Shown: positions 2,500-19,845 of the stretch, in pieces
Layout of the letters: each line of letters begins with the position of its first letter
Position numbering within the stretch: the first letter of the stretch is position 1
NCBI GenBank assembly: GCA_965221125.1
Contig: CBDCRW010000004.1
Coordinates: forward strand, 640,001 to 704,000
DNA: 64,000 nucleotides
Source of the DNA: Alphaproteobacteria bacterium
GTDB taxonomy: Bacteria; Pseudomonadota; Alphaproteobacteria; UBA828
Direction: 5' to 3'
Program-made: the position numbers and the translations under genes
Notes under the pieces: model-generated
What the model saw: only the letters and a program-made list of their open reading frames with translations
What the model was told of the DNA's origin: nothing
Database searches by the model: none

Positions 2500-2765
2500 G
2501 AGGCAGGAGGGAGGAACGATGACGGAATCAGAATGGTTATGGGAAGTTGGACCGTGTAACGTTTGAGTGAGTGGTTTGATTCACAACGATCTTTTGGTGT
2601 TCCGGTGCCCTTCCGTGCGGATCTCTTGTAAACAATGCCGCCGAGATTGGCCCGATATGGGCGACATTGTTTACACTTTTGTCGTCGGCACCCGATGCGA
2701 GGCCAGGAAGGACGGGCCGACGCGCGAAGCGCCGGCCCGATCGGGAGTAGACGGCGATCATGCTC

Positions 2766-3185
2766 CTAGAACGGCGAATCGGAGGCATGGCCGGCTTCTG
2801 CCGGCCGGCGGTCGTCCTGGGTGGCGGCGGTGCCGTTGGTGCGCTCGAGGAACTGGATCCGCGAACCGGGCACCAGCAGGATCTCGGTGGAGAAGCGGTC
2901 GCTGTCCTCGCCCTCCTTCCGCCACCTGCGCGTCTGGAGCTTGCCGCTGACGTAGACCAGGCGACCCTTCTTCGCGTGCTTTTCGAGCATGCCGATGAGC
3001 CCGTCCTGGAAGGTCACCGCCTTGTGCCATTCCACGCGATCGACGCGCTCGCCGGTCTTGTCGATGTACCCCTCGTCGGTCGCCACGCTCATATTGGCGA
3101 CGCGCCCGCCGGACGTGAGATTGGTGATGGTCGCATCGGCGCCCAAGCGTCCGATGAGCTCAGCCCTGTTCATCCCGAAGCTCAT
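2766..3185 (-). CDS. ssb: Single-stranded DNA-binding protein (cargo copy)
   Basis: MSFGMNRAELIGRLGAD...EWH...GKLQTRRW; C-terminus SDSPF; RBS CAGGAG. Confidence 0.95.
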   Translation of the reverse strand: MSFGMNRAELIGRLGADATITNLTSGGRVANMSVATDEGYIDKTGERVDRVEWHKAVTFQDGLIGMLEKHAKKGRLVYVSGKLQTRRWRKEGEDSDRFSTEILLVPGSRIQFLERTNGTAATQDDRRPAEAGHASDSPF

Positions 3186-3489
3186 GATCGTCTCCTGTTC
3201 ATCCGAGTTTCTGACGATGGTTGCGGAACGAAGCGGGCCGGGGGATCTCTCTCCCCGCCCTTCTCCGTTCATCCTCCTCCAGCCACTCTCCACCTCTGCC
3301 AGGCCCGGCGCCCCGGTGGCCGACAGGTAGCCGACGGCTTCACGGATCGCACGCGACGAGAGGCCGGCTGCGGCCGGGCGTGCGCCGGCATTGGAAGCCG
3401 CCAGGGCGCAGTTTTGATCAGGGGGGCGCGGGATGGGGGCGATCAGGGCGCGATGGGGCCAGCCGGCAGGCGGGTGTCGCTGAACGAGG

Positions 3490-5469
3490 TCATTGCCCGA
3501 TCGATCTCAAGCGCGACGCCAGGGTGATGTCGCGCTTCAGATTCCTTGGCGCCGTTGCGACGGCAGCGTCGAAGACGTTTCGGTCTCCGACGAAGACGAC
3601 CTGCTCCGAGGCCCGCGTGGCCGCGGTGTAGATCAGCGTTCTGTCGAGGATCCTGGACCGGTAGACGGGCACGATCACCAGGGGCCACTGCGAGCCCTGC
3701 GCCTTGTGCACGGAGATCGCGTAGGCGAGCTCGATGTTGGTGGCGTCGGCGGCGCCCAGCCGGTGCTCCTGGCTGTCGATGACCGCCGTCGCATGGTCCC
3801 GGTGCGCTTCGACGATACGGCCGGTGGAGCCGTTCATGAGGTCGCGCTCGTAGTCGTTGCGGGTCCAGATGACGGGATCGCCTTCGGCGATGTCGGCACG
3901 GCCGGGAACGAGACGGGGGGTATGGGCGCTGCCCTGCATCCGCAGTTCGTGGAACCGGCGGTTGATGGCGAGGATGCCCGCCGGTCCTGCGTTGACCGGC
4001 GCGACGATCTGAGCGTCGCCCCGGCGCAATCCGTTCTTGGCGAGCCGCGCGCCGGCATCGAAGATGACGTCGAACGCCTCCTCCGGGGCGGCGTCGATGA
4101 ACGTCACCCCCGGCGCCAGGCCGCGGAAGGGGCCGAGCTCCGGGCGGCGGCCGTTGCGAATGGCCTCGGCCACGACCGGTATCCCGGTCTCGGCCGATTG
4201 ACGCATCACGCGGTCGAGGACGGTCTTCGGGATGGCGGGATGTTCGATGAGCACGTGGAAGGTCAGGCCGAAGCCGATGGGCGGAAGCTGCGCGGGATCG
4301 CCGACGAGAACGAGGGAGGCGTCCCCGATGCGTCTCACCACCTGCCAGAGCAGGGGAAGGTCGACCATGGACGCCTCGTCGACGATGACGATGTTGCCTG
4401 CATGCAAGCGCGCACCCGCGCCGCCGGAGGTCTCCTTGAGGAAGCGGGCGATCGTCATCGCGGGGCGCCCCGCCGATTGGGCCATGCGCTGCGCCGCGCG
4501 GCCCGAGAGCGCGATGAGCACGGTGTCGCGGCCGAAGCGTTCCGCCAGCTCGCAGATGCCGCGCAGGGACGTGGTCTTGCCGGAGCCGGCATAGCCGCCC
4601 AGCACCGACAGCCGGTGCCGGAAGGCGCCCGCGATGGCGGCTTTCTGCGGGCCCGTGAGGCGGTGCGGCCGGCGGCGTTCATACTCGTCAACGGCGTGCC
4701 CGATCTCCTCGCCGGCAACAGCTGGCAAGGCCAGGTCGGACGCCGGAACTTCGGCGGCGAAGCGTGCGAGCTCTTCGGCAAGGAAGGCCTCCATGGCGGC
4801 CGCGCCCATGGGCTGAACGCCGTCCTCGAAGGGCTCGGCGCCGCCGGCTTCGACGGCGCTCTCGACCGCCCAGGGTCCGGCAGGGCTGCCGTCCGGAGCC
4901 GCTACGCCGGTGAGCAGCTTCGCGGCCCCGGCCTCTGCCGAGGCGCGGGACGTCCATGTATGGTTCCGGTCGAGGCGGCGGTAGAGGGTGGCCTCGACGG
5001 CGGCGACGGCGCGGCGGGGATCGTCGGGCGCGACGCCGAGAGCGCGGCAGACCCTGTCGGTTGCAGGCCAGGGCAGGAAGCTCGCGAGGAGGTAGGGATT
5101 GTCCTTCAGGGCGTCGATGCCGTCATGGCCCCAGCAGCGGGCGATCCTGATCGCGGTACGCGTCCCGACAGCGGGGGCGACCCCCCGGCTTTCCAGCCAG
5201 TCGAGAAGCTCGATCTCGGGGCTCTTCAACTCGTAGGCCGCGAACGCGTTGGTGGCGGTTTCCTCGCCGAGGATGGCGGTGACCTCGGGATGTTTCCGGT
5301 CGAGCGCGTTACGCAGGCCGTCGCCGAATGCGGCTGCCAGGGCAGCGGCCTTCGCGGGGCCGATGCCGCGGAAGTCCCGGTCCTCGGCAAGGTACGCCGC
5401 GAGCGCGCCGGGCCTTCGCGGCATCGGGGCCTCGACGGCGGCACGGGCGGCTGCGCCCGGCCGGCTCAT
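3490..5469 (-). CDS. recD2: RecD2-like SF1B DNA helicase
   Basis: N-terminal GIGP HhH-like motif, NPYLL, Walker A GYAGSGKT, DEASM, GDPAQLPPI, YAISVHKAQGSQW, YTAATRA. Confidence 0.9.
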   Translation of the reverse strand: MSRPGAAARAAVEAPMPRRPGALAAYLAEDRDFRGIGPAKAAALAAAFGDGLRNALDRKHPEVTAILGEETATNAFAAYELKSPEIELLDWLESRGVAPAVGTRTAIRIARCWGHDGIDALKDNPYLLASFLPWPATDRVCRALGVAPDDPRRAVAAVEATLYRRLDRNHTWTSRASAEAGAAKLLTGVAAPDGSPAGPWAVESAVEAGGAEPFEDGVQPMGAAAMEAFLAEELARFAAEVPASDLALPAVAGEEIGHAVDEYERRRPHRLTGPQKAAIAGAFRHRLSVLGGYAGSGKTTSLRGICELAERFGRDTVLIALSGRAAQRMAQSAGRPAMTIARFLKETSGGAGARLHAGNIVIVDEASMVDLPLLWQVVRRIGDASLVLVGDPAQLPPIGFGLTFHVLIEHPAIPKTVLDRVMRQSAETGIPVVAEAIRNGRRPELGPFRGLAPGVTFIDAAPEEAFDVIFDAGARLAKNGLRRGDAQIVAPVNAGPAGILAINRRFHELRMQGSAHTPRLVPGRADIAEGDPVIWTRNDYERDLMNGSTGRIVEAHRDHATAVIDSQEHRLGAADATNIELAYAISVHKAQGSQWPLVIVPVYRSRILDRTLIYTAATRASEQVVFVGDRNVFDAAVATAPRNLKRDITLASRLRSIGQ

Positions 5470-6005
5470 TCGGACGTCTCGTCGAGCTGAAGGCGGCTCT
5501 GTCCGGGGCCGGAGTTCTCTTTCTCCGGCGGCCTGGGCCTGTAGCGGCGACCGGCGGCGATCAGCGCTTGATCGGTAGCCTCATAGCGCCTCAGGCGGGC
5601 GATGAGCGCCGCGTTCCTGGCGACCAGCTCGCTGACGCGGCGCTCGGCGGCCGCGCTGCGCCGCTGTTCCTCGCGCAGGCGGGAGGCCGGCACCATGGCC
5701 TCCCCGCCGGCGTCGCCCGGCGCCTCGACAGCTCCCGTGGTCTGGCGGTCGTGCACGGAGGGCGGCGATCCTCTGGCGGAGAAGGCCACGCCCTTCCGGC
5801 CGGCGTAGTCCTTGAGCATGGCGCGGAAGGACGGGTTCTGCGTCACCGTCGACCGGCCAACCCCGACCAGCTGGCAGATCTTCGCCAGATGGAGAGCCCG
5901 GCCGTTCATGGGCAAGGTCTCGCCGGCCGCCTCGCGCGCGTCGATCTCTTCGCGCAGGCGCAGCACCGCCTGCCGGCCGCGTTCCGCGCCGCTGCCCCTG
6001 CTCAT
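5466..6005 (-). CDS. TnpC-like HTH/coiled-coil accessory protein
   Basis: HTH-like LAKICQLVGVGRSTVTQNP then coiled coil; ATGA overlaps with both neighbours. Confidence 0.7.
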   Translation of the reverse strand: MSRGSGAERGRQAVLRLREEIDAREAAGETLPMNGRALHLAKICQLVGVGRSTVTQNPSFRAMLKDYAGRKGVAFSARGSPPSVHDRQTTGAVEAPGDAGGEAMVPASRLREEQRRSAAAERRVSELVARNAALIARLRRYEATDQALIAAGRRYRPRPPEKENSGPGQSRLQLDETSE

Positions 6006-6421
6006 GCGTCATGCTCGCTATATTCTCGATCGACCGGCTGAAGCGGAGCGTCCAGCCGATGGTCGGGAATGCCGAGAACGTGCGTGTTGTAGGCCCAGAC
6101 GGCGAACCGGGTCATCATCGCCTCGTTCTCGGCGCGAAGCCGGCAGAGGTCCGCTTCCAGGGAATCGATGCGCTCGAGGAGGGCCGCTTCGGTGTCGGTC
6201 TTCGGTCTCGGCCGCCGCCCCGCCCCGCTGCCCCTGAGTTGCTCCCTGCGGGCCGCGAGCGCCGTCCTTATCCGTTCATGCCTGGACAGCGCCTGGCGCG
6301 AGTAGGCGTGGCCGAGCCGTCGCCGCGCCAGCCTCACGACCGCGCCCCACGTGGCCACCTCGAGCGTGCCGATGGTCCTGGCGAGCGTTTCGACGTTGGT
6401 CTCGGTGAGGTGCCGGGCCAT
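6002..6421 (-). CDS. GinD/TnpC-like accessory protein
   Basis: MARHLTE...TWGAVV...YSRQALSRHERI plus coiled coil; starts 1 nt after the recombinase stop. Confidence 0.75.
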   Translation of the reverse strand: MARHLTETNVETLARTIGTLEVATWGAVVRLARRRLGHAYSRQALSRHERIRTALAARREQLRGSGAGRRPRPKTDTEAALLERIDSLEADLCRLRAENEAMMTRFAVWAYNTHVLGIPDHRLDAPLQPVDREYSEHDA

Positions 6422-6422
6422 G

Positions 6423-8477
6423 TCACGGTTTCCGTAGCCGGGGTAAGGAATCGGGAGCCGGGCCGGGGCCGGGCAGGGCTTTCGCCGAACCGGCCCCGTC
6501 GCCGCCGATCGCATAGCGTGCCGCGCCGTCGAGCCTCAGGACGGCGCCCGGCGCGATCGCCGCGTCGTCGATCAGGGCGACGAGCTCGCGCAGGCGCGCA
6601 AGCTCGGTCCTCTTGCGGGAGAGCCAGATCTCCGAGTTGCCTTCGCCGATAGCTGCGGCCTCTTCCGCGGACGCGACAGCTTTCTGGATGACGGCTAGGC
6701 GGTCGCGCAGGGCGCGCTCGGCGCGCTCGTCTCCCTTGACGCAGGCGTGCTCGACGCAGTTCAGGCAGTCCCGGTACATCGGGCAGGGCGACGCCGCAAA
6801 GTCGTGCAGGCAGGCGCCGTAACGCGTCAGATGCACCCCGGCGAGACTGCCCTCGATCAGCTGCCGCGGGGTCACCGGCCGCTGAGGGGTTGCCGTCATC
6901 GGGCTGCCGAAGATGTCCCCGCCGAGAGAGCGCGCCTTGGAGACGAGGGAATCGGCGGTTTCGTGGTCGTAGTACGCGTTGTGCCGGATGTCCTTGCGGC
7001 CCGCCCATCTCGCGATGTCGAGCTGCGACAGGTTCCCCTCGTTCGCCAGCGTGGTCATGTAGTGGCGCAGCTGGTGAGGCGTGATGCGGACGGTCTCGCC
7101 ATCGTCGTCCACCAGCCCGAGACGGCCGAACAATCCAGCCTTTTGATCGCTCGTGCAGTCTCTCCCGTTCATGGTGTTCTTGATCTCGCTGGTCGAGACG
7201 CAGGAAAGGCGCCAGAAGAGAGTGCACGATTGCCGGGCCATGTCAGCGGTGCGTACGAGCAGCGCGCGGTCGTATCCGAGGCCGGATCTGGGATCGGCCA
7301 GCGGGAAGCCTTGCGGGAGCTCCGCCCGAAAGCCTTCTTCGATCGGCGCGCGGAGATAAAGCTTGGCGTTCATTGCGAGCTTGACGCCCAGCTGTGTTGC
7401 GTGGTCCGCGCGAACATCGAATCCGTTTCTGCGCAGCGCGACAAGCACGGTCCTCGGATCGGCGGCCGTTCCGAGACTCCTCATGCTGATGTAGCCCTCG
7501 CGGGCGAGAGGATCGTCCGGGGCGTCGCCCGGGAGGATGTCCTCGCCGGCCATGTACCTGCGCGCAAGCGCGCGGGCGGGCTCGGTGACGTCTCGAATGC
7601 GCTTCAGCGCGTCCCTCGCCAGCGGCACGAACGCGCTCGGGATCCAGCGCGTCTCGGGCTCGCCGCCCTTCGACGGATACCAGCGCAGGCCGTAGCGGTC
7701 CTTGCCGCTCTCGACGGCCTCCACTTCGCAATCGTAGGCGTCGAGCCGGTGCAGCTCGGAGATGCGGCTGTGCGTCACCAGGAGAAGGGCGTATGCGGAA
7801 GCGGCAATCACGTCCATTGGATGCTCGGCGCGGCGGTATGCCTCTCCGAGCGCGGCAAGCGCGCGTTCCGAGGGAAGTTTCCGGGCCCGAGCCCGCTCGC
7901 GTTCGACGCCGATGCGATCGAAGCTCGTCGGCCGCCTGATGGGGCAGGTCCAGACGAGAGGCCGCGCGACGAGGCCGTGATGGTCGAGAAAGCCGGCGAT
8001 CGCTTGAAGCTGCAGGCCGACGCGATACGCAGTGTGGCGGCTGTAAGCAGAGCGAGAGGCCGCGGCGGCGGCGTTGAAGTCGTCGGGCCGCGCGTCGGCA
8101 ATCGATTTGCCAGCTTCGGCGAGAGTCTTGTCGAGATGCCGCATCGCCGAGAGCATCAGCTGAGGGGCCATCTGTGGGGCAAGACCATACCTGTAGCGCA
8201 GGTACGCCTTGAAGAAGTCGGCGTTGCGGGCGCCGAACGGCGCGTAGTGCTCGATCGACCTTGGCGCTTTCTTCAGGGGATGACCCCAGTTGAGGCGAAG
8301 CACGCTCTTGCTGCGGCCCGACACAGTGGCAACTCCGCGCAGCTCCCATCTCGGCGCGTCCCAGTCGAGCTCGGCGCCGAACACCGTGAGGTCGTCGCGC
8401 GCATGACGGATGAACTCGGCGAGCCTCGCTTCGGCATCGAGCGCCTCCGCCGGCCGGAAGAGCGCGAGCTCAGCCAT
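6423..8477 (-). CDS. Large tyrosine recombinase (GinC-like) with C-terminal Cys cluster
   Basis: SRISEL, HQLRH, AYYDH; CLHD..CP..CLNC..C; ATG at 8477 overlaps the upstream gene stop. Confidence 0.85.
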   Translation of the reverse strand: MAELALFRPAEALDAEARLAEFIRHARDDLTVFGAELDWDAPRWELRGVATVSGRSKSVLRLNWGHPLKKAPRSIEHYAPFGARNADFFKAYLRYRYGLAPQMAPQLMLSAMRHLDKTLAEAGKSIADARPDDFNAAAAASRSAYSRHTAYRVGLQLQAIAGFLDHHGLVARPLVWTCPIRRPTSFDRIGVERERARARKLPSERALAALGEAYRRAEHPMDVIAASAYALLLVTHSRISELHRLDAYDCEVEAVESGKDRYGLRWYPSKGGEPETRWIPSAFVPLARDALKRIRDVTEPARALARRYMAGEDILPGDAPDDPLAREGYISMRSLGTAADPRTVLVALRRNGFDVRADHATQLGVKLAMNAKLYLRAPIEEGFRAELPQGFPLADPRSGLGYDRALLVRTADMARQSCTLFWRLSCVSTSEIKNTMNGRDCTSDQKAGLFGRLGLVDDDGETVRITPHQLRHYMTTLANEGNLSQLDIARWAGRKDIRHNAYYDHETADSLVSKARSLGGDIFGSPMTATPQRPVTPRQLIEGSLAGVHLTRYGACLHDFAASPCPMYRDCLNCVEHACVKGDERAERALRDRLAVIQKAVASAEEAAAIGEGNSEIWLSRKRTELARLRELVALIDDAAIAPGAVLRLDGAARYAIGGDGAGSAKALPGPGPAPDSLPRLRKP

Positions 8478-9957
8478 GAGCCACCCCCGTCCGCATCGCG
8501 CGGCAACGATCGGCGACCTCCGCGACGGCCATGATGGTTGCGTCGTTGGCGGCGGCCACCTGCGGGGAGATCCCGTCCGCGAGAAGCGTCCTGCGCTCCT
8601 CGACCAGGGACTGCAGCAGATCCTCGTGAGGCGCGTCACGCCAGGGACGGAACGCGGCGCAGGTGTAGCATGCAAGCGGCGCCAGACGGACACAGCTGCG
8701 CGGGCCCGCGCAGGTTCCCACGCCTCCGCCGGCGGCGGACGCAACGCGACGCGACGGCGCTTCCCCGGCGCCGGATTCGACCTCGCCCGCAACGATCGTG
8801 CCCCTGAACAGCCCGGCCAGCGGCTCCGCCCGGCCATGAAGGGCGGCGTCCATGCGGTCCTGGATCGAGCCGCGCGACTCCACATACACGCCGACGTGCT
8901 GGAGGTCGGTGTGATCGAGAAGGTGAGCGATCAGAACAGGAGGGTGACCCACATCGGCAGCACGCGTCCCGAGAGTGCTCCGGAACCGCCGGGGCGCCAG
9001 GTTGATCGGAGCGGCAGTGCGCGCCGACCGAAGGCCGAGCGCGCTCTGGATGCGCCTCAGAGCGCGGCCGGCACCGCCCCTGCCGATGTGTGCCTCCGCG
9101 AGCGATGCGAAGGCGGTCGCCTCGACGGCAAAGATCGGACGCCGGTCGACCGGAATGCCCCGGAAGCGCTCGTCGCGGGATCGCTCCTCGACGAGTTCCC
9201 TAAGCAGAACGGCAAGCTCGCCAGGGATGACCCGCTCGCGCGTGAGGCGCTTCGGCGTCCTCTTCTTGAGAGACGGCACCAGGAGGCGAGATGCGGCCGA
9301 TCCCGGTGCAGGCGGAACCAGATCGCCACAAGTCAGCATCGACAGCTGGCCGGGCCGGGCCCCCGTTGCGGTCAGCGTGAGAAGAATGCCGAAGTCCTGC
9401 CTGCTCACGCGGCCCTCGCCATACGCCTCGCGTGCCGCAAGGGTGATGCTCTGCAACTCCACATCGGTGAAGGGACCCTTCGTGGGGTGGTGCGTGCGGA
9501 CGGCGGCGCCCTTGACGTTCCCGGGTATCTTGATGCTGCTGAAGAACTGCAGCACGTCGCGGTCGACCCCGGCGTAGCCGCGTGCGACCCAGAACTTCAG
9601 GAACGCCGCGACGTGGCCCAGATAGTGCAGTTGCTCGCGAGCGAGCAGCGACCGGTAGTCCATGAGAGCCGCCGCAGAGATGGTGGCGCCGACCGGGACA
9701 TCCCGCGCCATTCTTGCGAGGGCCTGGACGCCCCCCAACACGGTGTCGGGGGAGCGATCTTCCATGTAGGCAAGGGCAGCCTGCTTGACGTTGTCGGCGT
9801 GCCCGGCGCCCCAATGATCTCGTATCGGCTTGAAGGAGATGCGGGTCACGCCCTTCTCCAGCACGATCTTCCAGACGTCGCCGCCGGAATCGAATCCCGC
9901 ATGGATGCCGCGCTCTCGCGGAGCGCCGGCAGGCTGCAATCCGCCCGGACTACTCAC
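8470..9957 (-). CDS. Tyrosine recombinase (GinB-like) with C-terminal Cys cluster
   Basis: TGARPGQL, RRFRST, LLDH, VGVY; C..C..CYTC. Confidence 0.85.
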   Translation of the reverse strand: MSSPGGLQPAGAPRERGIHAGFDSGGDVWKIVLEKGVTRISFKPIRDHWGAGHADNVKQAALAYMEDRSPDTVLGGVQALARMARDVPVGATISAAALMDYRSLLAREQLHYLGHVAAFLKFWVARGYAGVDRDVLQFFSSIKIPGNVKGAAVRTHHPTKGPFTDVELQSITLAAREAYGEGRVSRQDFGILLTLTATGARPGQLSMLTCGDLVPPAPGSAASRLLVPSLKKRTPKRLTRERVIPGELAVLLRELVEERSRDERFRGIPVDRRPIFAVEATAFASLAEAHIGRGGAGRALRRIQSALGLRSARTAAPINLAPRRFRSTLGTRAADVGHPPVLIAHLLDHTDLQHVGVYVESRGSIQDRMDAALHGRAEPLAGLFRGTIVAGEVESGAGEAPSRRVASAAGGGVGTCAGPRSCVRLAPLACYTCAAFRPWRDAPHEDLLQSLVEERRTLLADGISPQVAAANDATIMAVAEVADRCRAMRTGVAHG

Positions 9958-11194
9958 CCTCGAACAATCCCTGGTGCATGCCTCTCAGGGCGGCCTCGGC
10001 CGCCCGTTCGACGTGACGGTGCGTGTAGACCGCCGCCATCTTCGAATCCGGACTCCATCCCATCAGGAAGTTGCGGATGCGCTCCTCGCTCGCCTCGGGG
10101 GTGCGATCGCCACGCTCCGCCCTGCCGTCGATCGCGGCCGAGAACCTGTCGTTCCAGGTGTGGCGCAACAGGTGAGGATGGAGACGGAAGCCGAGAACGC
10201 TTTCGAGCGCAGCGAAGACGTTGCCCACGCTTCTCGGGGTCAACGGCGCTCCCGGCCTGATTCCTGCATGGGACACGAAGACATAGGCGTGCATCCGGGC
10301 GCCGGGTTCGGTCCGGCGCCAATCCGACAGGTAGGCGAAGAGGATGTCCGCCAGCTCCGGCCTGATCGGCACGGGCCGTGCGCCGGACTTGGTCTTCGGC
10401 TTCTGCCGACGAGGGTCCCGGGGGTCCGGAGGGCGCCGATGGATCGAGATCGTCAGTTTCCTGAAGTCGATGTCCGGGATCTTCAGGCCGCAAAGCTCGC
10501 CCCTGCGCATGCCGGTCTCGTCAAGGCAGGCAACAACGGCAAGGTTGCGATAGCGAACCGCCTCGCTCCGGAACGGGTTTTCCGGCGAGGACGGATCGAT
10601 GACGGCGAACAGCCGGTCGCGCTGTTCCGGCGACAGGCCCTTCCTGGGCTCGGACGGTTGACGCGCGCCCACCTTCGCCCGGGCGGTCAGAGCCTTGACG
10701 GTGTCGCGAAGGAGCTGCTGCGATCCGGCGGCACGGCTGTGGCTTGCAAGCCAGTCGAGATAGGCAGCGACGGACCGCACACGGTTGGCTCCGGTCTGGG
10801 GGTCCAGCATCTCATCGCAGTCGTGGGGAAGGTGCCGATGAAGCTCCTTGCCCGATCTGGAAAGCGGCAGGACATTGGCTTGGTGGGGACGCTCGGTCCG
10901 ATCCGGAACCCGGGCGGTCTTCAGCGCATGGGAAAGACTCTCGACCTCCCGCAGCTCCAGACCGGCGCCCGTGGCCATGCGTGCTTCGAGGGAGAGCCCG
11001 TTCGAGTGCGCCCACACCCGGGCCGCCGCGATCGCGCGCATGTGCGCCTCGATCGTGTTCTCGGCGCGGCCGGCGTTTCTGAGAATGGAGACCGCATACC
11101 GTATCGGCTCGGGCGCGGGGGCCGAGCCGGGCTCGACCAGGGCGGGGAGCGTCTCGCCGCCGGGAAGTCTGATTCTGCGGACGCTCTCGGGCAT
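9950..11194 (-). CDS. Tyrosine recombinase (GinA-like)
   Basis: TGMRRGEL, KTK, HLLRH, MGW and AVY give a complete catalytic set. Confidence 0.9.
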   Translation of the reverse strand: MPESVRRIRLPGGETLPALVEPGSAPAPEPIRYAVSILRNAGRAENTIEAHMRAIAAARVWAHSNGLSLEARMATGAGLELREVESLSHALKTARVPDRTERPHQANVLPLSRSGKELHRHLPHDCDEMLDPQTGANRVRSVAAYLDWLASHSRAAGSQQLLRDTVKALTARAKVGARQPSEPRKGLSPEQRDRLFAVIDPSSPENPFRSEAVRYRNLAVVACLDETGMRRGELCGLKIPDIDFRKLTISIHRRPPDPRDPRRQKPKTKSGARPVPIRPELADILFAYLSDWRRTEPGARMHAYVFVSHAGIRPGAPLTPRSVGNVFAALESVLGFRLHPHLLRHTWNDRFSAAIDGRAERGDRTPEASEERIRNFLMGWSPDSKMAAVYTHRHVERAAEAALRGMHQGLFEGE

Positions 11195-11330
11195 CGAAAG
11201 TTTACGCTCTTGCCTTGTTCCGGCTTACCTAGAATTGCGACTCCAAACGTGTCAATCATGAAATTCAACAAAAAATGAAAGCCCGCAAGGTGTTACCCCT
11301 GCGAGCTTTACATTTCTACCTAACTTCCCC

Positions 11331-11783
11331 TTAGAACGGGATTTCGTCGTCCAGATCCGCGGGCGCCGAGGCCGGGGCCGCGCCGGTGTCGCCCGCCGCG
11401 TCCGGGTCGGGCTGCATCCGGTCGTTGCCGTTCGGCTTGTCCAGGAATTGCACCCGGCCGCCCGGGACCAGCAGGATCTCGGTCGAGAAACGGTCGCCGT
11501 CCTCGCCCGGCTTCGACCAGCGGCGGGTCTGGAGCTTGCCGTCGACATAGACCAGCCGGCCCTTGGTGGCGTGCTTCTCGAACATGTCGATCAGCCCCTC
11601 CTGGAAGGTGACGACCCGGTGCCATTCGGTCTTGTCGACCTTCTCGCCGGTCTGCTTGTTGATGTACGACTCGTCGGTCGCGATGCTCAGGTTGGCCACG
11701 CGGCCCCCCGAGGTGAGGTGGTTGACGGTCACGTCGGCGCCGAGGCGGCCGATCAGTTCCACGCGGTTGAGTCCGAATGCCAT
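11331..11783 (-). CDS. ssb: Single-stranded DNA-binding protein (backbone copy; integration target)
   Basis: MAFGLNRVELIGRLGAD...; acidic tail DLDDEIPF. Confidence 0.95.
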   Translation of the reverse strand: MAFGLNRVELIGRLGADVTVNHLTSGGRVANLSIATDESYINKQTGEKVDKTEWHRVVTFQEGLIDMFEKHATKGRLVYVDGKLQTRRWSKPGEDGDRFSTEILLVPGGRVQFLDKPNGNDRMQPDPDAAGDTGAAPASAPADLDDEIPF

Positions 11784-12244: not shown

Positions 12245-12781
12245 CTACGAACCGGACGCGGCGCGGCGGATGGCGGCCAGGCGCTCGCATACCGCCCGCG
12301 GCGACATGGCTCCGAGGTTCAGCACCGGAATGCCGCGGGCCTCGGCGATGCGAATACCCATGCCCGTGCCGCCGACCGGCTCGCCGCGTGCCGACCAGCA
12401 CACGACCGCATCGACGGGCCGGTCCAGCCGCTGGCCCAGCAGGATCGCGACATTCCGGGCGTGCAGCTTCCGGGCGCCCGACGAGCAGCGGTGCCAGGCG
12501 GGATGCAGGCCAGCCGCGATTTCCATGCATGCGGGGAGCAGCGACGGGGTGAGCACGCGGCAGTCCGGCCCCCGGTGCCCGTTATAGCCCCGCCATGGCA
12601 GCCAGATGGTCCGCTGCTCCACCGGCGCTCCCGCCGCGAACGCGCTGTCGGCCCCGTCCGCGCCGCCTGAAGACAAATGCCAGCCGGTCCGCGCCAGCCA
12701 GCCCGCCATCGTCTCCATATTCGCCAGCACGGTCGCCGGCGTCTCGCGCGAGCCGATCCCCGCATAGGTCAATGTCGTCAT
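12245..12781 (-). CDS. Standalone SLOG-superfamily (Smf/DprA/YspA-like) nucleotide-binding protein
   Basis: YAGIGSRETP, SGGADGAD, HARN, GGTGMG motifs; GGGAGA RBS. Confidence 0.85.
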   Translation of the reverse strand: MTTLTYAGIGSRETPATVLANMETMAGWLARTGWHLSSGGADGADSAFAAGAPVEQRTIWLPWRGYNGHRGPDCRVLTPSLLPACMEIAAGLHPAWHRCSSGARKLHARNVAILLGQRLDRPVDAVVCWSARGEPVGGTGMGIRIAEARGIPVLNLGAMSPRAVCERLAAIRRAASGS

Positions 12782-12939
12782 GGTCCGATCTCCCCGGTTG
12801 CGACGGCCGCGACTCCCTCTCGGTCAACGGCTTCGCTCCCGGACCGCTTTTCTCCACCTCTGCGATGCGAACGGACCGGCCTCGCTTGCATTGCCGCGCT
12901 GCCCGGGGCATCGGTTGCGGCATGAACGGTCGTGGATCG

Positions 12940-13302
12940 ATGGCGAGGCGCGGATTCTGGCCGCTGGCGCTTCTCTGGCTGCCGGCCGGGGTGATGGCGC
13001 AGGCGGTCATCCGGTTCGGGCCGTCGGCGGTCGGGTTCGCGGATTCCGGGGAGGCGCTGGCGGCGCTGGGCTCGCTCGCCGTCGCCGTCCCGTGCGGTCT
13101 GCCGCTGGCGCTCGGCTGCCGGCGCCTCTGGCGCCTCGGCTACCGACGCGCGGCCTGGGCGACAGCTATCGGGCTGGGCGCGCTCACCGTGCAGGCGACG
13201 GTCGTCGCCGGGCTCCTCGGCCCGGTGGCCATCGCCGTCTGCGCCGCTGTGTTGAGCCTGCCGGTCTGGATCGCCTGGCTTTGGTTTGTGCGGCGCGGAT
13301 GA
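12940..13302 (+). CDS. Small multi-pass membrane protein
   Basis: About four hydrophobic segments (MARRGFWPLALLWLPAG...). Confidence 0.55.
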   Translation: MARRGFWPLALLWLPAGVMAQAVIRFGPSAVGFADSGEALAALGSLAVAVPCGLPLALGCRRLWRLGYRRAAWATAIGLGALTVQATVVAGLLGPVAIAVCAAVLSLPVWIAWLWFVRRG

Positions 13303-13567
13303 TTGCGGACGGCGGGCCGGCAGCGGAGCATGGCCGCCATGTGCGAGCCCCTATGGTCGCCGGACGGCACGGGGTCGGCTGCGCAGTAGTGCGATGGGCC
13401 GAAACCGGGCGGCCGTGGCCCCGACAAGACGACGATGGGCCGGCTGCGCAGCAGGGCGGTCAGACCGAACGGCGCGGAGAGGCGGTGGGTTTGGCGTCAC
13501 CGGCCCGCACAGGCATGTCCGGGACAGACATTGGCCATTCGCGCATTTTTGTGCGAGAGTGCTGCGG

Positions 13568-13780
13568 GTGAACGGACGTGAATTCATAACGCGGGTGAGA
13601 AGGCTGGCGCGCAGAAGCGGCATCGCGGTCCGGTTCGACAGGACAAGGGGCAAGGGCAGTCACGGCACCCTGTATTACGGCGACCGACATACCGTGGTGA
13701 AGGACCGCAGGAAGCCGCTCAAGACCGGTACGCTGCGCGGCATGTGCAAACAGCTGGGCATCGACCCGAACGACCTATAG
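13568..13780 (+). CDS. hicA: HicA-family toxin
   Basis: GTG start; GKGSH motif and KTGTLRGMCKQLGI tail; directly upstream of hicB. Confidence 0.9.
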   Translation: MNGREFITRVRRLARRSGIAVRFDRTRGKGSHGTLYYGDRHTVVKDRRKPLKTGTLRGMCKQLGIDPNDL

Positions 13781-13792
13781 GGAGTTCCGATC

Positions 13793-14227
13793 ATGGCAAC
13801 CCGATACAGCTACCCCATCGACCTCCACAAGGAACGCGAAGGCGGGTTTTCGGTGACCTTTCCGGACTTCGACGAGGCCTTCACCGACGGCGATACCGTC
13901 GCCGAGGCGGTCGCGGAAGCCGCGGACTGCCTGGAGGAGGCGCTCGCGGGCCGCATCGCGCGGCGCGAGGACATCCCGGCTCCGAGCCCGGCGAAGGGCC
14001 GGCCGGCGGTGACGCCCGGCGCGGTGCTCGCCGCCAAGGCGGCGCTCTACGAGGTCCTGCGCGAGCAGCGGCTGTCCAACAGCGCCTTCGCGGTGGCCAT
14101 GGGCGTTCAGGAGAGCGAGGTTCGCCGCATGCTCGACCCCCGTCATGCCACCAAGATCGGCAGACTGGAGGAAGCCCTGGCCCGTTTCGGAAAGCGTCTG
14201 GTGGTTACTGTGGAGGTGGCCGCCTGA
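13793..14227 (+). CDS. hicB: HicB-family antitoxin with C-terminal HTH
   Basis: GGFSVTFPDF..AFTDGDT..EA; IPAPS; HTH region. Confidence 0.92.
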   Translation: MATRYSYPIDLHKEREGGFSVTFPDFDEAFTDGDTVAEAVAEAADCLEEALAGRIARREDIPAPSPAKGRPAVTPGAVLAAKAALYEVLREQRLSNSAFAVAMGVQESEVRRMLDPRHATKIGRLEEALARFGKRLVVTVEVAA

Positions 14228-14295
14228 CCGGCGAGCGGCGGATGGTGGGCCGGCTGCGGAGCAGGAGTGTGGGGGCGTGGATTTCCGCGAGCAGA

Positions 14296-14799
14296 TCAAG
14301 CATCGCCGAAGAGCTGATGCCACAGGCCCTCGATCGAATCGATGCGTGTGAATTGGCCCTTGTTGACGACACGGTGGGTGGGCCTCTCGGCCTTCACGCC
14401 TTGGGCGTTCGCCTTGGTGTGCTTCGCGGTCCTGAACGATTCGAGATCCGGCAGTCTCTTTCCGGGCTCGCCGCCGAAATACAGAAAGGGTCCGAGTTCG
14501 AGGGAATCGGGATCGAAGTACACCCATACGACGCAGCCGGATGGCTTTTCGGCCAGAGAAAGACCGACTTTCTGGGTTGCGGTCCTGGAACCGCGATAAG
14601 ACGCTTTCAACTGTATGTGGCGAACATGCCCGTTGCACTCGGCGATGAGATCATACCCGGCCCGGTCCACTTCTGGCTTTGATGTTTCGATCGAGCAATC
14701 GCCTCTCTGCCAGGACCGTTTCAGCAACTCGCCGACCAGAAGGTGCTCGATGAGGTTCTCGCGGAATGCGGAATGGAGATAGTGCTTGCTGTCGTTCAT
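14296..14799 (-). CDS. PD-(D/E)xK nuclease-fold protein
   Basis: EVDRAGYDL...HIQLKAS pattern; lower GC than flanks. Confidence 0.7.
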   Translation of the reverse strand: MNDSKHYLHSAFRENLIEHLLVGELLKRSWQRGDCSIETSKPEVDRAGYDLIAECNGHVRHIQLKASYRGSRTATQKVGLSLAEKPSGCVVWVYFDPDSLELGPFLYFGGEPGKRLPDLESFRTAKHTKANAQGVKAERPTHRVVNKGQFTRIDSIEGLWHQLFGDA

Positions 14800-15303: not shown

Positions 15304-18300
15304 TCAGGCTGCGAGCGGCCAGCGTTCGAGAACGCGTTCCAGCACGCCGGCATTGGGCGCGAATATCCGGGCCCGGAACGAGACGATCTCGACGGTGCAG
15401 CCCATGCGCTTCAGCGCGGCCATATCGGTATCCGCCGGCCCCTCGATCTCGACCCGGTCGGCGCCCATCAGCCTACGCCGCGCGAGCCGCCAACCGTTGG
15501 CGAGAGACAGCGCGGTGCCGCGTTCCATGACCGCCGCGAAGGCTTCCGCGCCGGTCATGGCGGGACCGCCGTCGAGACCGAACCCGGCGCGCACGGAGCG
15601 TACCTGCTCGGCGTCGAGCACGCGTCCGATGAGGGCGATGCCATCGTCACTGGTGAGCCGTCGGACCCGCATGTTCTCGGCGGGCAGGCGGTCCCAGACC
15701 GGCAGTAGCAGGCCGGAGGCGAGCCAGAAGCGCGAGTCCCGGTGGGACGGCAGTCCGGCGATCTCGGCGTCCCAGACGCGCCGCCACCCGGCTTCGTCGG
15801 CCCGGCGCCAGTTGGAGGCGTCGAGCTCGGCCTTCGCCATGGTCTCGGCGGTCGCGGGCCGGATGAGCCGCACCCGCTCCTTCACGCCGCCGTCGTCGAG
15901 CATGCGCGAGGCGGCCGGCAGCACCACGGCGGCGCGCTTCGAGCGGGCGTTGACGGCGAGACGGGGCTTTCCGTCCGGTCCCGGATCCCGCTCGCCGATC
16001 TCCAGCGCGGCGTCGGCGGTGAGCGGCACCAGCCGATCGCGGCGCACGATCTCGACCAGCTCGGTCGCCGCGCCTGTGCCGGGATGCTCGTAGAGCGTCT
16101 CCCGGCCGGCGACGGCGAGCGAGTCGGCGGTCACCGTCTCGACCCCGACCTCGTAGCTGCCGGCCTCGATCGCCTGCTCGATATTGGCGGCGATGCGGGC
16201 CTCCAGCTCGGCAAAGAGCTGGTTCTGCTCGGCGATGGGGAGCGCCAGCAGACGGTTGAGGAACCTGGGCATGGGCGGCAGGTCCTCCTTGAGCGATCCC
16301 TCCCAGGTGAGCTTGAGCCCGGTGGCCTTCTCGAAGCGCTCCAGAGTCCAGCCCTGGATGGACCCGCGCCAGAGCGCGCCGTAGAACTGGCGCAAGGCAG
16401 CCTTGGCATACGGGCTCTCAAGGTTGTCGCTCTCGCGGAACAGCGCCGCGTCGCTGCCGCCCATGGCGGTCTGACTGTCCCGCTGGCCCCGCGTGATGGC
16501 GCCGAGGCTGTCGAGCCGCCGGGCGATGGTGGCGATGAACCGGCGCTCGCCCTTAACGTCCGTAGTGACGGGCCGGAACAGCGGCGCGGAGGCTTGGTGC
16601 GTGCGGTGGGTACGGCCCAGACCCTGGATCGCCTGGTCGGCGCGCCAGCCGGGTTCCAGCAGATAGTGGATGCGGCGTTCCGTGTTCCCGCAGGACAGAT
16701 CGGCGTGGTAGCTGCGGCCCGTGCCGCCCGCCATGGAGAACACGAGGATGCGCTTGCTCCCATCCATGAACGCGGCGGTCTCGGCAAGATTGGCAGAGGT
16801 CGGCCGCGAGCGCAGCGAGAGACGTTCGCCCTTGGCGTCCACGATCCTCACCACTCGGCGCGACCGGCCGGTGACCTCGGCGACGGCCTCGTGCCCGAAA
16901 TGCTGCACGATCTGGTCGAGCGCCGTCGGCACCGGCGGGAGCGCCGCGAGCTTCTCGATCAGCGCGTCGCGGCGGTCCTCGGCCTCCTTGCAGATGACGG
17001 GGTTGCCGTCGTCGTCCCTGGCGGGGCGGCTCAGGAGATTGCCGGCGTCGTCGGTGAAGGGCTCCTGGAGCTGCACCGGGAAGGCGTGCATCAGGTAGGA
17101 GAGAATGGCGTCCCGGGGCGTCAGGTCGATATTGAGATCGTCCCACTCCGAGGCCGGGACGTCGGCGATGCGGCGCTCCATCAGCGCCTCGCCCGTGGAC
17201 ACGAGCTGGACCACGGCGGACCGGCCGGCGGCAAGGTCGGCCTCGATCGCGCGGATGGTCGAGGGGCACTTCATGCCGGTCAGCAGGTGGCCGAAGAAGC
17301 GCTGCTTGGTGCCCTCGAAGGCCGACAATGCCGCCGCCTTGGCGTTCTTGTTGAGCGTGTCCTCGCCCTGGACGATGCCGGTCGCCTTCAGCGCCTCCTC
17401 GATGTTGGCATGGATCACCTTGAAGGCGCCGGCATAGGCGTCGTAGATGCGCCGCTGCTCGGGCGTGAGGGGGTGTTCGAGGATGCCGACCTCGATCCCG
17501 TCATAGGCCAAGGCTCTCGCCTGGTAGAGACCGAGGGCCTTCAGATCGCGCGCCACGACCTCCATCGCGGCGACGCCGCCCGCCTCCATGGCGGAGACGA
17601 ACTCGACGCGCTTCTCGAACGGCGTCTCGCCGGCGCCCCAGAGGCCGAGCCTGCCGGCATAGGCCAGACCCGGCACGGTGGTGGCGCCGGTGGCCGAGAT
17701 ATAGGCGATCCGCGCATCCGGCAGTGCGTTCTGGAGCCGCAGGCCGGCCCGTCCCTGCTGGGAGGGCTTGGTCTCGCCACGCTCGGACTTGGAGCCGGCG
17801 GCGTTGGCCATGGCATGCGCCTCGTCGAAGACGATGACCCCGTCGAAGGCGTGGCGGTCCTCTTCGTCCAATGAGCCCGCCAGCCATTCGACGATCTGGT
17901 CGAGCCGCGAGGGCTTCCCCTGGCGGGACGGCGAGCGCAGCGTGGCGTAAGTCGCGAACAGGATCCCCTCGTCGAGCGGGATCTCCATCCCCTGCCGGAA
18001 ATTGCCGAGCGGGATGACGTCGCTCTCCAGCCCGCCGAGCGCCGTCCAGTCGCGGCGCGCGTCCTCCAGCAGCTTGTCGGACTGGCTGAGCCAGAGGGCG
18101 CGTTTCCTGCCCCGCAGGCGGTGGTCGAGGATGATGGCGGCGACCTGGCGGCCCTTGCCGCATCCGGTGCCGTCTCCCAACATCCATCCCCGGCGGAAGC
18201 GCACCGGCTCCGACAGGGTCTCGCCCCCGGATCCAGTCCGGGGCAGGCTCTCCTGGGTGACGAGGGAGGTGTCGATTTCCTCCCCGGATCCGGTCCGGGG

Positions 18301-19845
18301 CAGGCTCTCGCCGTCCTTCGGGCAGCGGTGGACGGTCTCCCACTGGGAGTCGATCCGGTACTCCGCCGCGAGATGGCGCGAATGGGCCTCGCCCGCCAGC
18401 ACGACGCTCTCGAGCTGGGCATCGGACAGCATGCCGTCCGTTACCACGCGTTCCGGCAGCATCGGCCGCCAGGCCGGTACCGGATGGGGCACGGCGGCCA
18501 TGGCGGCGGACTGCACCAGCGGCGTCGGATGCTCGACCGCGCCCGGCACCCGCACCGCACGCGGCCGCCAGGGAGCGTAGGGACCCGCGTCGGCGGCCGA
18601 CGATTCGGCATCGGCGGTCGCTGTCTCCACCGGCCCGGTCTCGACGACCAGTTCCGATACCGGTCCCCAGTCATGGGCCTGCCGCGTCTCGGGCGTAGAT
18701 ACGGGCTTCTGACCCCGCCGCTTCTCGGTCTTCGGCGCTACCGGCTTGCCGAACAAGTCGCGCGCGGGGCCGGACTGGACCGGGGCGGACGCGATCGGCT
18801 GCCGCTTCGGTACCCGCGCGATGACGGCATCGAGTAGTTCGGCGGCGTTCTCGGCGCGTGCCGTTCCGTCCAGTTCGACAGCGGGTCCGGCGCCGCGCTC
18901 CAGCACGGTGAGGCGGGTGTCGAATCCGGTGCCCCGGCGGGCATAGGCCCGGCCGTCGATCGCCATGGTGAAGACGCAGCGGGCCGGCGGGTCGAGACGG
19001 CCGACGGTGTCGCCCGGCGCGCAATGGGCCGACGTGATCGTCACCAGCCGGCCGCCCGGCGGCAGCATCGAGGCGGCGGAGCGGACATGGCGGAGGTCGG
19101 CGTCGCGGGTGGTGCGGTCGACGCCGGGCGTTGCCGAAAACGGCGGGTTCATCAGGACCACCGTCGGCCGGACGTCGCGCAGCCGGTCCGCGATCGTCTC
19201 GGCGTTGAACGCGGTGACCACCGCCTCGGGGAAGAGCTGCGTCAGCAACCGCGCCCTGGTCTGCGCGTATTCGTTGAGGTGGAGATTGCCTGTGGCGGAG
19301 TTGCCGAGCGCGCACTGCGCCATGACGGCCAGCATCCCGGTGCCGGCGGAGGGTTCCAGCACGACATCGCCCGGCCGGATGGCGGCGGCCTGTAGCGCGG
19401 CATAGGCGAGCGGCAGCGGCGTCGAGAACTGCTGGAGGCGGACCTGCTGCTCGGAGCGCCTGGTATGCGAGGGCTCCAGCGCCGCGAGGGCCTCCAGCAT
19501 CGCCAGCATGCGGCGCGTGCCGTCAATACCGGCGCCCGCATTGCGCCGCATGCCCCGGCCGTAGCGCTGCATGAAGATCACGACGGCCGCTTCGGCGGCC
19601 TCGTAGGCATCCTTCCAGACCCAGGCGCCCTCGGCGTCGGTGGCGCCGAAGGCATCCGTCATGGCGGCCCGCAGCGTTGCGGCATCGAGCGGACGTCCGG
19701 CCTCCAGCACCGGCAGCAGGGTTCGGGCCGCGGCGAACAGGGCGTCGCCCGCGATCGGGCGGGCCGGCGATGCGGCCGGGTCGGTGGGGACGGCGGGAGG
19801 AAGAGAACGCGCGAGGGCGTCCGGCGCCGGATGGGCGTCGAGCAT
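15304..19845 (-). CDS. N6-adenine methyltransferase-strawberry notch (SF2-like) helicase fusion
   Basis: LEPSAGTG and NPPF MTase motifs; GDGTGCGKGRQ, DEAH, SATG, AGGTGRSYHAD, QGLGRTHR. Confidence 0.92.
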   Translation of the reverse strand: MLDAHPAPDALARSLPPAVPTDPAASPARPIAGDALFAAARTLLPVLEAGRPLDAATLRAAMTDAFGATDAEGAWVWKDAYEAAEAAVVIFMQRYGRGMRRNAGAGIDGTRRMLAMLEALAALEPSHTRRSEQQVRLQQFSTPLPLAYAALQAAAIRPGDVVLEPSAGTGMLAVMAQCALGNSATGNLHLNEYAQTRARLLTQLFPEAVVTAFNAETIADRLRDVRPTVVLMNPPFSATPGVDRTTRDADLRHVRSAASMLPPGGRLVTITSAHCAPGDTVGRLDPPARCVFTMAIDGRAYARRGTGFDTRLTVLERGAGPAVELDGTARAENAAELLDAVIARVPKRQPIASAPVQSGPARDLFGKPVAPKTEKRRGQKPVSTPETRQAHDWGPVSELVVETGPVETATADAESSAADAGPYAPWRPRAVRVPGAVEHPTPLVQSAAMAAVPHPVPAWRPMLPERVVTDGMLSDAQLESVVLAGEAHSRHLAAEYRIDSQWETVHRCPKDGESLPRTGSGEEIDTSLVTQESLPRTGSGGETLSEPVRFRRGWMLGDGTGCGKGRQVAAIILDHRLRGRKRALWLSQSDKLLEDARRDWTALGGLESDVIPLGNFRQGMEIPLDEGILFATYATLRSPSRQGKPSRLDQIVEWLAGSLDEEDRHAFDGVIVFDEAHAMANAAGSKSERGETKPSQQGRAGLRLQNALPDARIAYISATGATTVPGLAYAGRLGLWGAGETPFEKRVEFVSAMEAGGVAAMEVVARDLKALGLYQARALAYDGIEVGILEHPLTPEQRRIYDAYAGAFKVIHANIEEALKATGIVQGEDTLNKNAKAAALSAFEGTKQRFFGHLLTGMKCPSTIRAIEADLAAGRSAVVQLVSTGEALMERRIADVPASEWDDLNIDLTPRDAILSYLMHAFPVQLQEPFTDDAGNLLSRPARDDDGNPVICKEAEDRRDALIEKLAALPPVPTALDQIVQHFGHEAVAEVTGRSRRVVRIVDAKGERLSLRSRPTSANLAETAAFMDGSKRILVFSMAGGTGRSYHADLSCGNTERRIHYLLEPGWRADQAIQGLGRTHRTHQASAPLFRPVTTDVKGERRFIATIARRLDSLGAITRGQRDSQTAMGGSDAALFRESDNLESPYAKAALRQFYGALWRGSIQGWTLERFEKATGLKLTWEGSLKEDLPPMPRFLNRLLALPIAEQNQLFAELEARIAANIEQAIEAGSYEVGVETVTADSLAVAGRETLYEHPGTGAATELVEIVRRDRLVPLTADAALEIGERDPGPDGKPRLAVNARSKRAAVVLPAASRMLDDGGVKERVRLIRPATAETMAKAELDASNWRRADEAGWRRVWDAEIAGLPSHRDSRFWLASGLLLPVWDRLPAENMRVRRLTSDDGIALIGRVLDAEQVRSVRAGFGLDGGPAMTGAEAFAAVMERGTALSLANGWRLARRRLMGADRVEIEGPADTDMAALKRMGCTVEIVSFRARIFAPNAGVLERVLERWPLAA
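18225..18309. repeat. Two in-frame copies of the palindromic mini-repeat, each encoding ESLPRTGSG
   Basis: ccccggatccagtccggggcaggctctc and ccccggatccggtccggggcaggctctc. Confidence 0.85.

Follow-up and report, generated by a model that had tools for sequence, protein, structure and literature searches.

Tn554 of staphylococci is a site-specific transposon that uses tyrosine recombinases, tolerates a mismatched core and carries along core bases of the site it previously occupied. RIT elements, which comprise a trio of recombinases, have long imperfect terminal inverted repeats and no fourth small gene. A third group, the GInts, which excise as circular molecules and thereby restore attB, consists of elements with ginABCD at one end, cargo past ginD and flanking imperfect repeats (Bardaji 2017, PMC5385486). 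Six of the 11 GInts analysed in that study lie at the end of an ssb homologue, where attL overlaps the end of the gene and leaves its product unaltered. The same report gives experimental evidence for 6-nt staggered cuts, describes attachment-site variants that incorporate host bases, and likens GinD to a TnpC-like helper. In Escherichia coli, cassettes made of three integrases plus a small gene are also named GInts (Hochhauser et al., who cite a Pseudomonas-plasmid paper for the Tn6571 family). The Tn554 gene set is named in PMC8865565, and Tn554-family classifications include ginABCD subfamilies. Finally, the SE elements are made of intA-tfp-intB and srap; they are reported only from Gammaproteobacteria, with protein clusters distinct from those of GInts (Idola 2023, PMC10214605). 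Here we analyse a stretch of 64,000 nucleotides from an alphaproteobacterium (assembly GCA_965221125.1, contig CBDCRW010000004.1, positions 640,001 to 704,000), which we call the window. It holds, immediately after an ssb gene, an island of about 8.8 kb that is in all likelihood a GInt-type element of the Tn554 superfamily, inserting site-specifically at the ssb tail by means of its own recombination module.

The island sits between the stop codon of an ssb gene (11331-11783, minus strand) and a displaced ssb stop codon (2528-2530) followed by a terminator. Read on the minus strand, the backbone ssb ends ATC CCG TTC TAA at 11342-11331 and continues into GGGGAAGTTAGG, while the far end of the island reads CCAACTTCCC ATAA CCA TTC TGA at 2550-2528. 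The target gene codes for a protein of 150 amino acids (aa) of the conjugative-element type (PF00436, 84 bits) with the tail ...DLDDEIPF; its homologues at seven other such sites of the genome are 67-79% identical. At the left, the attL core CCG TTC TAA (11331-11339, minus) combines a target-dependent Pro wobble base (11337) with a constant stop, TAA, supplied by the island. It is followed by the left island end, GGGGAAGTT (11322-11330, minus), of which bases 11322-11329 form one arm of an 8-bp inverted repeat. At the right, the second arm, AACTTCCC, and then ATAA (2537-2548, minus) lead into the attR core CCA TTC TGA (2528-2536, minus). There, the target supplies the stop and all that lies downstream of it, and the wobble base 2534 varies among otherwise identical copies. 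The resulting direct repeat, CCN TTC TRR, is 9 nt long and imperfect (7/9 in the window).

Each end of the island has a terminator of ssb next to it. The island brings a replacement (11269-11312, minus), with a TGTAAAG box, a 13-pair hairpin at 11309-11278 and a T run; in a terminator scan with folding it reached -28.4 kcal/mol (z -4.65), and none of 200 shuffles did as well. In relatives, among them the elements of E. coli and Pseudomonas plasmids, a similar GTAAAG hairpin lies past the junction. The original terminator (2466-2499, minus), with a T run after a stem of 12 pairs at 2499-2472 of which 10 are G-C, now stands 8.8 kb away from its gene. The right-end region also has a palindrome, GTAAACAATG...CATTGTTTAC (2625-2672, minus), a candidate accessory binding site judging from its sequence; it is present in one alphaproteobacterial relative, locus L014, and in a variant form in another, L013.

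The source assembly (4.58 Mb in 7 contigs, 92% complete, 5.8% contamination) contains this island several times over. The first recombinase gene, int1, is found at six loci with 100% amino-acid identity. Using blastn and motif searches we located five full-length copies: contigs C2, C4 (the window copy) and C5 have one each, and C7 has two in inverted orientation. In addition, C4 ends in an island fragment whose left flank is that of the copies on C7. An alignment of the five full copies that runs from GGGGAAGTT to CCCATAA shows no mismatch over 8,794 bp, and they differ solely by an IS21-like insertion of 2,815 bp that interrupts one of the two on C7. All five are flanked by the direct repeat. 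They lie in four different contexts, in backbones that are only 74-81% identical, and at either end the identity between copies breaks off no further than one base from the CCN wobble. The left junctions read CC[C/G/T/A] TTC TAA GGGGAAGTT, and the right junctions AACTTCCC ATAA CC[G/A] TTC T[AG][AG], followed by four different, unrelated flanks. Contigs made from the short reads of a public run (contigs, not raw reads; the run holds 96% of sampled words) collapse the same unit: one of them, 8,802 bp long, spans 2535-11336 exactly at a depth of 97.6, and the contigs of the window flanks have a depth of 6-16. For this reason neither the limits of the island nor its multi-copy state can be put down to the long assembly. 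The genome contains 233 CCNTTCTRR sites, yet every island copy is at an ssb tail, so that four independent hits on such tails are far from what chance would give. A tblastn search of this genome found no diverged recombinase paralogues: the three recombinases and the two small genes match only at 97% identity or more, and the sole weaker matches are generic helicase matches.

Unoccupied sites are present in the same genome. Eight ssb loci of the target type lie outside islands; five adjoin an island copy, and the three others are free, ending in ATA CCG TTC TGA, ATT CCC TTC TGA and ATC CCG TTC TAG, with a terminator next in each case and a single CCN TTC TRR copy. Two of the three continue downstream into sequence homologous to what flanks the C2 and C7 copies on the right. 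Five identical copies, precise junctions and empty sister sites make the genome a natural archive of a recent multiplication.

Relatives of the island keep to the same address, even where their proteins are only about 30% identical. Outside the source genome, 16 of 18 loci start right after an ssb CCN TTY stop. Among 49 genomes of the order, homologues are present in three others, all of the same genus (int1 62-72% identical), and each of their six loci lies directly after ssb CCN TTY TRR, chromosomal-type ssb genes included. Within the class, 401 sampled genomes gave four others with a homologue, three of them after ssb and one (G088) elsewhere, while a scan of genome contigs found loci L013 and L014, in other alphaproteobacterial assemblies, directly after ssb ...CCG TTC TAA (int1 85-86% identical). 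The plasmid collection contains 52 records with a homologue, below 60% identity, 28 of which are typed conjugative. We inspected six: in five – an E. coli IncF plasmid, two P. aeruginosa plasmids, Xanthomonas pCuR and an Azospirillum replicon – four collinear genes come directly after the plasmid ssb, the exception being a degenerate Acinetobacter element that does not follow ssb. In complete genomes of E. coli, the module of a distant relative is 100% identical beside a plasmid ssb (L028, NZ_CP069668.1) and 99.8% identical beside the chromosomal ssb1. With the E. coli ginABCD-like sequence as a query, 388 records of the collection cover at least 80% of its length. Most F-type plasmid ssb tails match only its first 60-110 bases or so, which fits empty sites.

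The recombination module occupies one end of the island. According to a GC3-guided call of open reading frames (ORFs) combined with family scans, six minus-strand genes follow each other, int1, int2, int3, a GinD-like gene, o179 and a helicase gene; because their starts and stops overlap or abut, they look like one translationally coupled operon. The first three are consecutive recombinase genes overlapping by 8 nt each. The GinA-like int1 (9950-11194, minus; 414 aa; PF00589, 54 bits) aligns to the Int protein of Tn1549 across the box I Arg and HxxRH. The GinB-like int2 (8470-9957, minus; 495 aa), whose start overlaps the int1 stop, belongs to the site-specific integrases of NCBIfam NF041502 (355 bits for a cutoff of 350) and shows the conserved R, K, RxxR, H and Y positions. 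The GinC-like int3 (6423-8477, minus; 684 aa from the ATG at 8477) is a large recombinase-fold protein with a weak PF00589 match over box II and with conserved motifs of both box I and box II. In an alignment of 11, int3 and its 10 homologues keep SRIsE, RW..KG, HQxRH, W.GR and Y.H, together with a Cys-rich C-terminus, and int3 has candidate residues at all catalytic positions, tentatively assigned from the partial Pfam match, its Tyr being in N..Y.H. Cys-rich motifs that look metal-binding end both int2 (GtC..C..CYTC..F.pW) and int3 (C.HD..PC..RDC..C..CvKGD) and are kept down to 30% identity; a sequence search of the PDB with these two proteins gave no useful match. One nucleotide past the int3 stop begins the GinD-like small gene (6002-6421, minus; 139 aa, coiled-coil), with a faint similarity to DUF6262 and 28-39% identity to the fourth gene of five plasmid-borne elements.

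In terms of mechanism, this four-gene module, three tyrosine-recombinase-fold proteins and the GinD-like protein, would recombine a joined-end site with the last two codons and the stop of ssb. When its ends are joined, the window island gives AACTTCCC-ATAACCATTCTAAG-GGGAAGTT, an inverted repeat around a 14-bp spacer. In the relative of genome G031 the corresponding site is AAAGGGCCT-ATAACCCTTCTAAA-AGGCCCTTT, with a 14-bp spacer again, and the three central bases of both arms differ from those of the window island in a complementary way, a covariation that speaks well for functional binding sites in the arms. Among the remaining alphaproteobacterial relatives, the right end shows RGGGCCY-ATAA and the left end imperfect complements; ATAA precedes the core at 8/8 right junctions (seven alphaproteobacterial loci with an identified right junction). 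The site used would read AACTTCCC-ATAACCNTTCTAAG-GGGAAGTT and its target CCN TTY TRR. A joined-end junction is expected to contain ...AACTTCCCATAACCNTTCTAAGGGGAAGTT..., a circle joint to read ...AACTTCCCATAACC[N]TTCTAAGGGGAAGTT..., and the exchange to fall within ATAACCNTTCTAA. We infer the circular intermediate itself, as well as the role of each protein.

What happens to the target can be followed from its stop codons. The TAA of the left junction comes with the island, since it is constant, and the stop of the right junction comes from the target, since it varies (TGA, TAG, TAG, TAA). The island supplies its own TAA and terminator, leaving the original stop and terminator stranded at its far end; because it brings both, the target SSB keeps its ...IPF tip and is still terminated. 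Across copies, the left/right pairs of Pro wobble bases are C/G, G/A, T/G and A/A. Most likely the cuts would be staggered, some 6-7 bp apart around CCNTTC(T), in agreement with the 6-nt stagger of Bardaji (PMC5385486); mismatches would be tolerated there and segregate afterwards, and this would explain why the Pro wobble is the sole variable base among otherwise identical copies. In copy 2 of G031, attL has CCG TTT and attR CCC TTC, two positions differing together. Every pair of junction bases has a base in common with another site, and this would fit jumps made in series, from C7 to the window and then to C2 and C5. Much of this agrees with a preliminary description of the locus, drawn from the window alone. 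Its junction coordinates and strings and its orphaned terminator are all correct on re-reading the sequence, and three Phage_integrase-like ORFs plus a small gene do lie between the junctions, as in the three-recombinase island it described. Insertion into the Pro-Phe-stop tail with SSB left intact is borne out by precise junctions in four ssb contexts, the symmetry of the joined ends by arms that covary with G031, and the predicted empty site by the three unoccupied ssb-terminator loci of the same genome; the flanks of homologues, where it had proposed to look for ssb 3' ends, have them at the 16 outside loci. It had missed the second ssb (3185-2766), the RecD2-like helicase (5469-3490), the replacement terminator (11309-11278) and the multi-copy state.

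Could the copies have arisen without any activity of the module? An element no longer moved by its own recombinases might have been carried between related backbones by homologous recombination or gene conversion in the ssb and Toprim flanks; the backbones are indeed homologous on both sides, at 74-81% DNA identity, and neither a circle nor an excision joint was detected in the contigs. Conversion tracts, however, would bring along flanking DNA of variable length, whereas the copies cease to be identical no more than one base away from the core, at both ends and in all four contexts. Flanks this diverged are poor substrates, and relatives are found at unrelated chromosomal-type ssb genes, so that we hold such a passive spread to be very improbable. 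A simpler proposal would make the 8.8 kb an ordinary part of the conjugative-element backbone, duplicated along with it rather than separately inserted. Helicase and ssb genes are typical of backbones, and the SSB encoded within the island is 68% identical to the target SSB. The empty sites contradict this: homologous backbones of the same genome are without precisely these 8.8 kb. Moreover, the copies are 100% identical as against 74-81% for their backbones, and the island occurs as a unit after unrelated ssb genes in other genomes, all of which makes the chance of a mere backbone duplication next to nil.

The class of the element deserves a similar scrutiny, for tandem tyrosine recombinases are common to Tn554 proper, RIT and SE, to any of which the island might belong instead, and the Tn554-family schemes themselves take in ginABCD subfamilies (PMC8865565). 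What speaks for GInts is the order and size of the products (414, 495 and 684 aa, then 139 aa), which fit ginABCD and not Tn554 or SE. As in the GInts of Bardaji (PMC5385486), three tyrosine-recombinase-fold genes and a small gene stand at one end with the cargo after them, the target is an ssb end whose product remains intact, the direct repeats are short and imperfect, and overlap bases that mismatch are passed on; with 9 nt, the repeat is slightly shorter here than the 10-17 nt of that report. Tn554 has two recombinases (tnpA, tnpB) plus tnpC and targets att554, in contrast to the three recombinase-fold genes of the island. The long repeats of RIT are unlike its 8-bp terminal inverted repeat, and it has the fourth small gene. 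SE shares with it four conserved genes and recombinase-fold proteins with a small auxiliary one, and forms a circular intermediate with heteroduplex spacer such as the island may also use (PMC10214605), but has the order intA-tfp-intB with srap, whereas the large recombinase-fold protein comes third in the island, as in ginABC. The four module proteins are collinear with, and 28-39% identical to, those of the ssb-linked plasmid elements of E. coli, Pseudomonas, Xanthomonas and Azospirillum. One of the closest known systems is the ssb-associated GInt with Avs4 of E. coli (for example NZ_CP069668.1; also chromosomal, near ssb1), which likewise comes directly after ssb ...ATT CCG TTC TAG, with four collinear homologous genes and a GTAAAG hairpin at the left end; it differs in its proteins, which are 29-35% identical to those of the island, in having an anti-phage cargo in place of helicase and ssb, and in its gammaproteobacterial host. 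Membership in a group other than GInts seems to us quite unlikely.

A number of observations weigh against our reading of the island as a GInt-type element that inserts by means of its own module. The assignment to GInts goes through the ssb-linked E. coli and Pseudomonas elements and not through a direct match to the reference GinABCD proteins (P. stutzeri DSM 4166 or P. syringae). The protein int3 keeps a candidate catalytic set, while GinC is described as devoid of the first Arg (Bardaji, PMC5385486) and, by Idola (PMC10214605), of the Tyr for which int3 has a candidate. The latter survey reports no ginC-ginD blocks in Alphaproteobacteria with its PSI-BLAST queries, which places the window lineage at a distance from the reference GInts. 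Three canonical ssb tails remain unoccupied despite their match to the target. No excised circle and no 2534/11337 joint was found in the contigs of the public run, contigs being prone to drop rare forms. The identity of the copies could in part reflect polishing of the 7-contig assembly, an explanation that the short-read contig argues against. The proposed order of jumps rests on four junction-base pairs, which is weak evidence. Lastly, the left flank of the C5 copy is an IS110-family element; the 20 bp or so that are left there (...GGC TTC CCT TTC TAA) are compatible with an ssb tail. This insertion sequence (source genome, C5:55454-57099, locus L007), with a transposase of 367 aa and at least five copies 98-99.9% identical, ends 10-20 bp upstream of the island left junction and has replaced ssb there. 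A tandem second island at this place was considered and rejected, the non-ssb left flank being that multi-copy element.

Past the module, the cargo is, in contrast to the GInts of Bardaji (PMC5385486), small, conserved and coupled to the recombination genes: a VPA1267-like gene and a RecD2-like helicase gene, then an ssb with an altered tip. The first, o179 (5466-6005, minus; 179 aa), overlaps the ginD stop with its start and resembles the VPA1267 family (NCBIfam NF040697, E 1.1e-7, below the cutoff of that model; Atlas feature score 0.94 to VPA1267/DUF6262 clusters). Paralogy between the GinD-like gene (o139) and o179 was rejected (BLASTP E 0.5 only). The helicase gene (3490-5469, minus; 659 aa), whose start overlaps the o179 stop, codes for an SF1B enzyme with AAA_30, UvrD_C_2 and HHH_RecD2 domains; it scores 338 bits with TIGR01448, below the cutoff of 500, and is 82-87% identical in relatives. 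PADLOC, run on the island cargo, returned generic RecD-type helicase matches only and no defined defence system. The block int1-int2-int3-small gene-o179-helicase is present in 5/5 alphaproteobacterial relatives searched. After a 300-bp gap comes the island ssb (2766-3185, minus; 139 aa; PF00436, 75 bits), with the tip ...SDSPF, ending in CCG TTC TAG and followed by a hairpin of its own.

This internal ssb is found in four of six lineages, being absent from L014 and not found in genome G048. Wherever it is borne by the island, the SSB tip departs from the canonical IPF: it is SPF in the window (2766-2780), LPF in L013 (18997-19011) and LTF in G031 and G046 (L022, around 10750). In the island ssb of G031 and G046 the Pro codon is replaced by ACG (ACG TTC), and the CC of the target core is lost. 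Possibly these tips are altered so that the island avoids inserting into itself; drift is another reading. That the internal ssb might be a landing pad for further copies was rejected, the five full copies being collinear and identical through its tail. The IS21-like element of one C7 copy (C7:37017-39819 in the source genome, G000, corresponding to about 2722-2734 in the window) lies in the hairpin after this gene and has a 511-aa IstA-like ORF; an identical copy of it is at C3:6374-9176.

All four insertion contexts are ssb genes of conjugative-element-type backbones, in which ssb, a terminator and a DUF7146-Toprim gene follow one another; other genes of the window code for a TrwC relaxase, a ParB-like protein, RadC and an SNF2-type helicase. 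Because the tip of SSB is conserved, any ssb, be it chromosomal, plasmid-borne or in an integrative and conjugative element (ICE), can be a target, and insertion into that of a conjugative element would provide the island with a vehicle between cells. Hitch-hiking transfer of this kind, on conjugative elements through their ssb, is well supported by the genomic contexts, from which we infer it. The preliminary description went further, making the island a parasite of the leading region of conjugative elements: the four contexts of conjugative type, and the distant relatives located after the ssb of conjugative plasmids, agree with the conjugative part of this claim, which is too narrow in that relatives also reside in chromosomal-type ssb genes. 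It had also implied that ssb was not a described target for such elements; this novelty fails, as the element type and the ssb target are already published (Bardaji 2017, PMC5385486). What may be moderately new is the multiplication within one genome into conjugative-element-type ssb genes, five identical copies in all, and an alphaproteobacterial lineage, some 30% identical to the gammaproteobacterial plasmid elements examined, with a conserved helicase and ssb cargo. In our literature search we found no paper stating that GInts are located at plasmid ssb genes, and earlier reports are possible. We would only tentatively, and with more doubt than conviction, generalize that GInts of ssb tails travel by way of the ssb genes which conjugative plasmids and ICEs carry, the island being a specialized rider, coupled to a helicase and with a self-avoiding SSB tip, whose wobble bases record its jumps. 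If true, this would answer how GInts, deprived of transfer genes, move between cells; the route is directly testable, and the attachment sites are defined well enough for a recombination assay.

The host element may itself be decayed, since its coupling-protein ORF covers only positions 243-451 of a profile of 468. Its conjugative-type region contains insertion sequences: an IS21-like pair (rve and AAA_22), a DDE_Tnp_1_4 transposase and a Mutator-family transposase. The coordinates noted for these and for the coupling-protein region are 33402-35530, 37173-38513, 52732-53928 and 48771-49547. In the window a NADAR-domain gene (1775-2326) separates the displaced ssb terminator from the DUF7146-Toprim gene; it is absent from at least one sister backbone, that of the empty site at C4:982 kb, where the gap between ssb and Toprim is about 400 bp. 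The contigs of the public run list a joint 1728->11329 (one contig, with 45 letters on its short side), which is not a precise excision.

Several relatives are damaged. In some, o179 (in one copy) or the helicase gene is cut by an insertion, and frameshifts affect int1 in G048 and int3 in L014. The latter, which has no internal ssb, shows a 2.7-kb insertion with two transposase-like ORFs in the helicase gene (L014 positions 16596-19344 and 12265-14382 for these features) and is probably a dead copy. In another alphaproteobacterial assembly (L013 9512-9865, and L043, genome G049), the left end of the island abuts a chromosomal uvrA-ssb pair (57.6% GC). The ssb adjoining this island is cut to 117 aa (...GELTMLD-PF*), without linker and acidic tip, and the right flank there is a conjugative-element backbone. 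That genome yielded no further ssb of chromosomal type, and a search for the reciprocal product of the truncated gene in G049 did not find it. A second island copy there, short of 3 nt at its right end, is fused into an FAD-oxidoreductase-like gene, which could stem from a secondary-site event, a deletion or an assembly mis-join. Finally, two sponge-metagenome runs from two studies have contigs on most of the island (window 2871-11205) at 95-99% identity, while in one of the runs the flanks of the window are covered barely or not at all, and about 0.3 of the sampled words also occur in further sponge-metagenome runs; from these matching contigs, close relatives of the island occur in sponge-associated communities.

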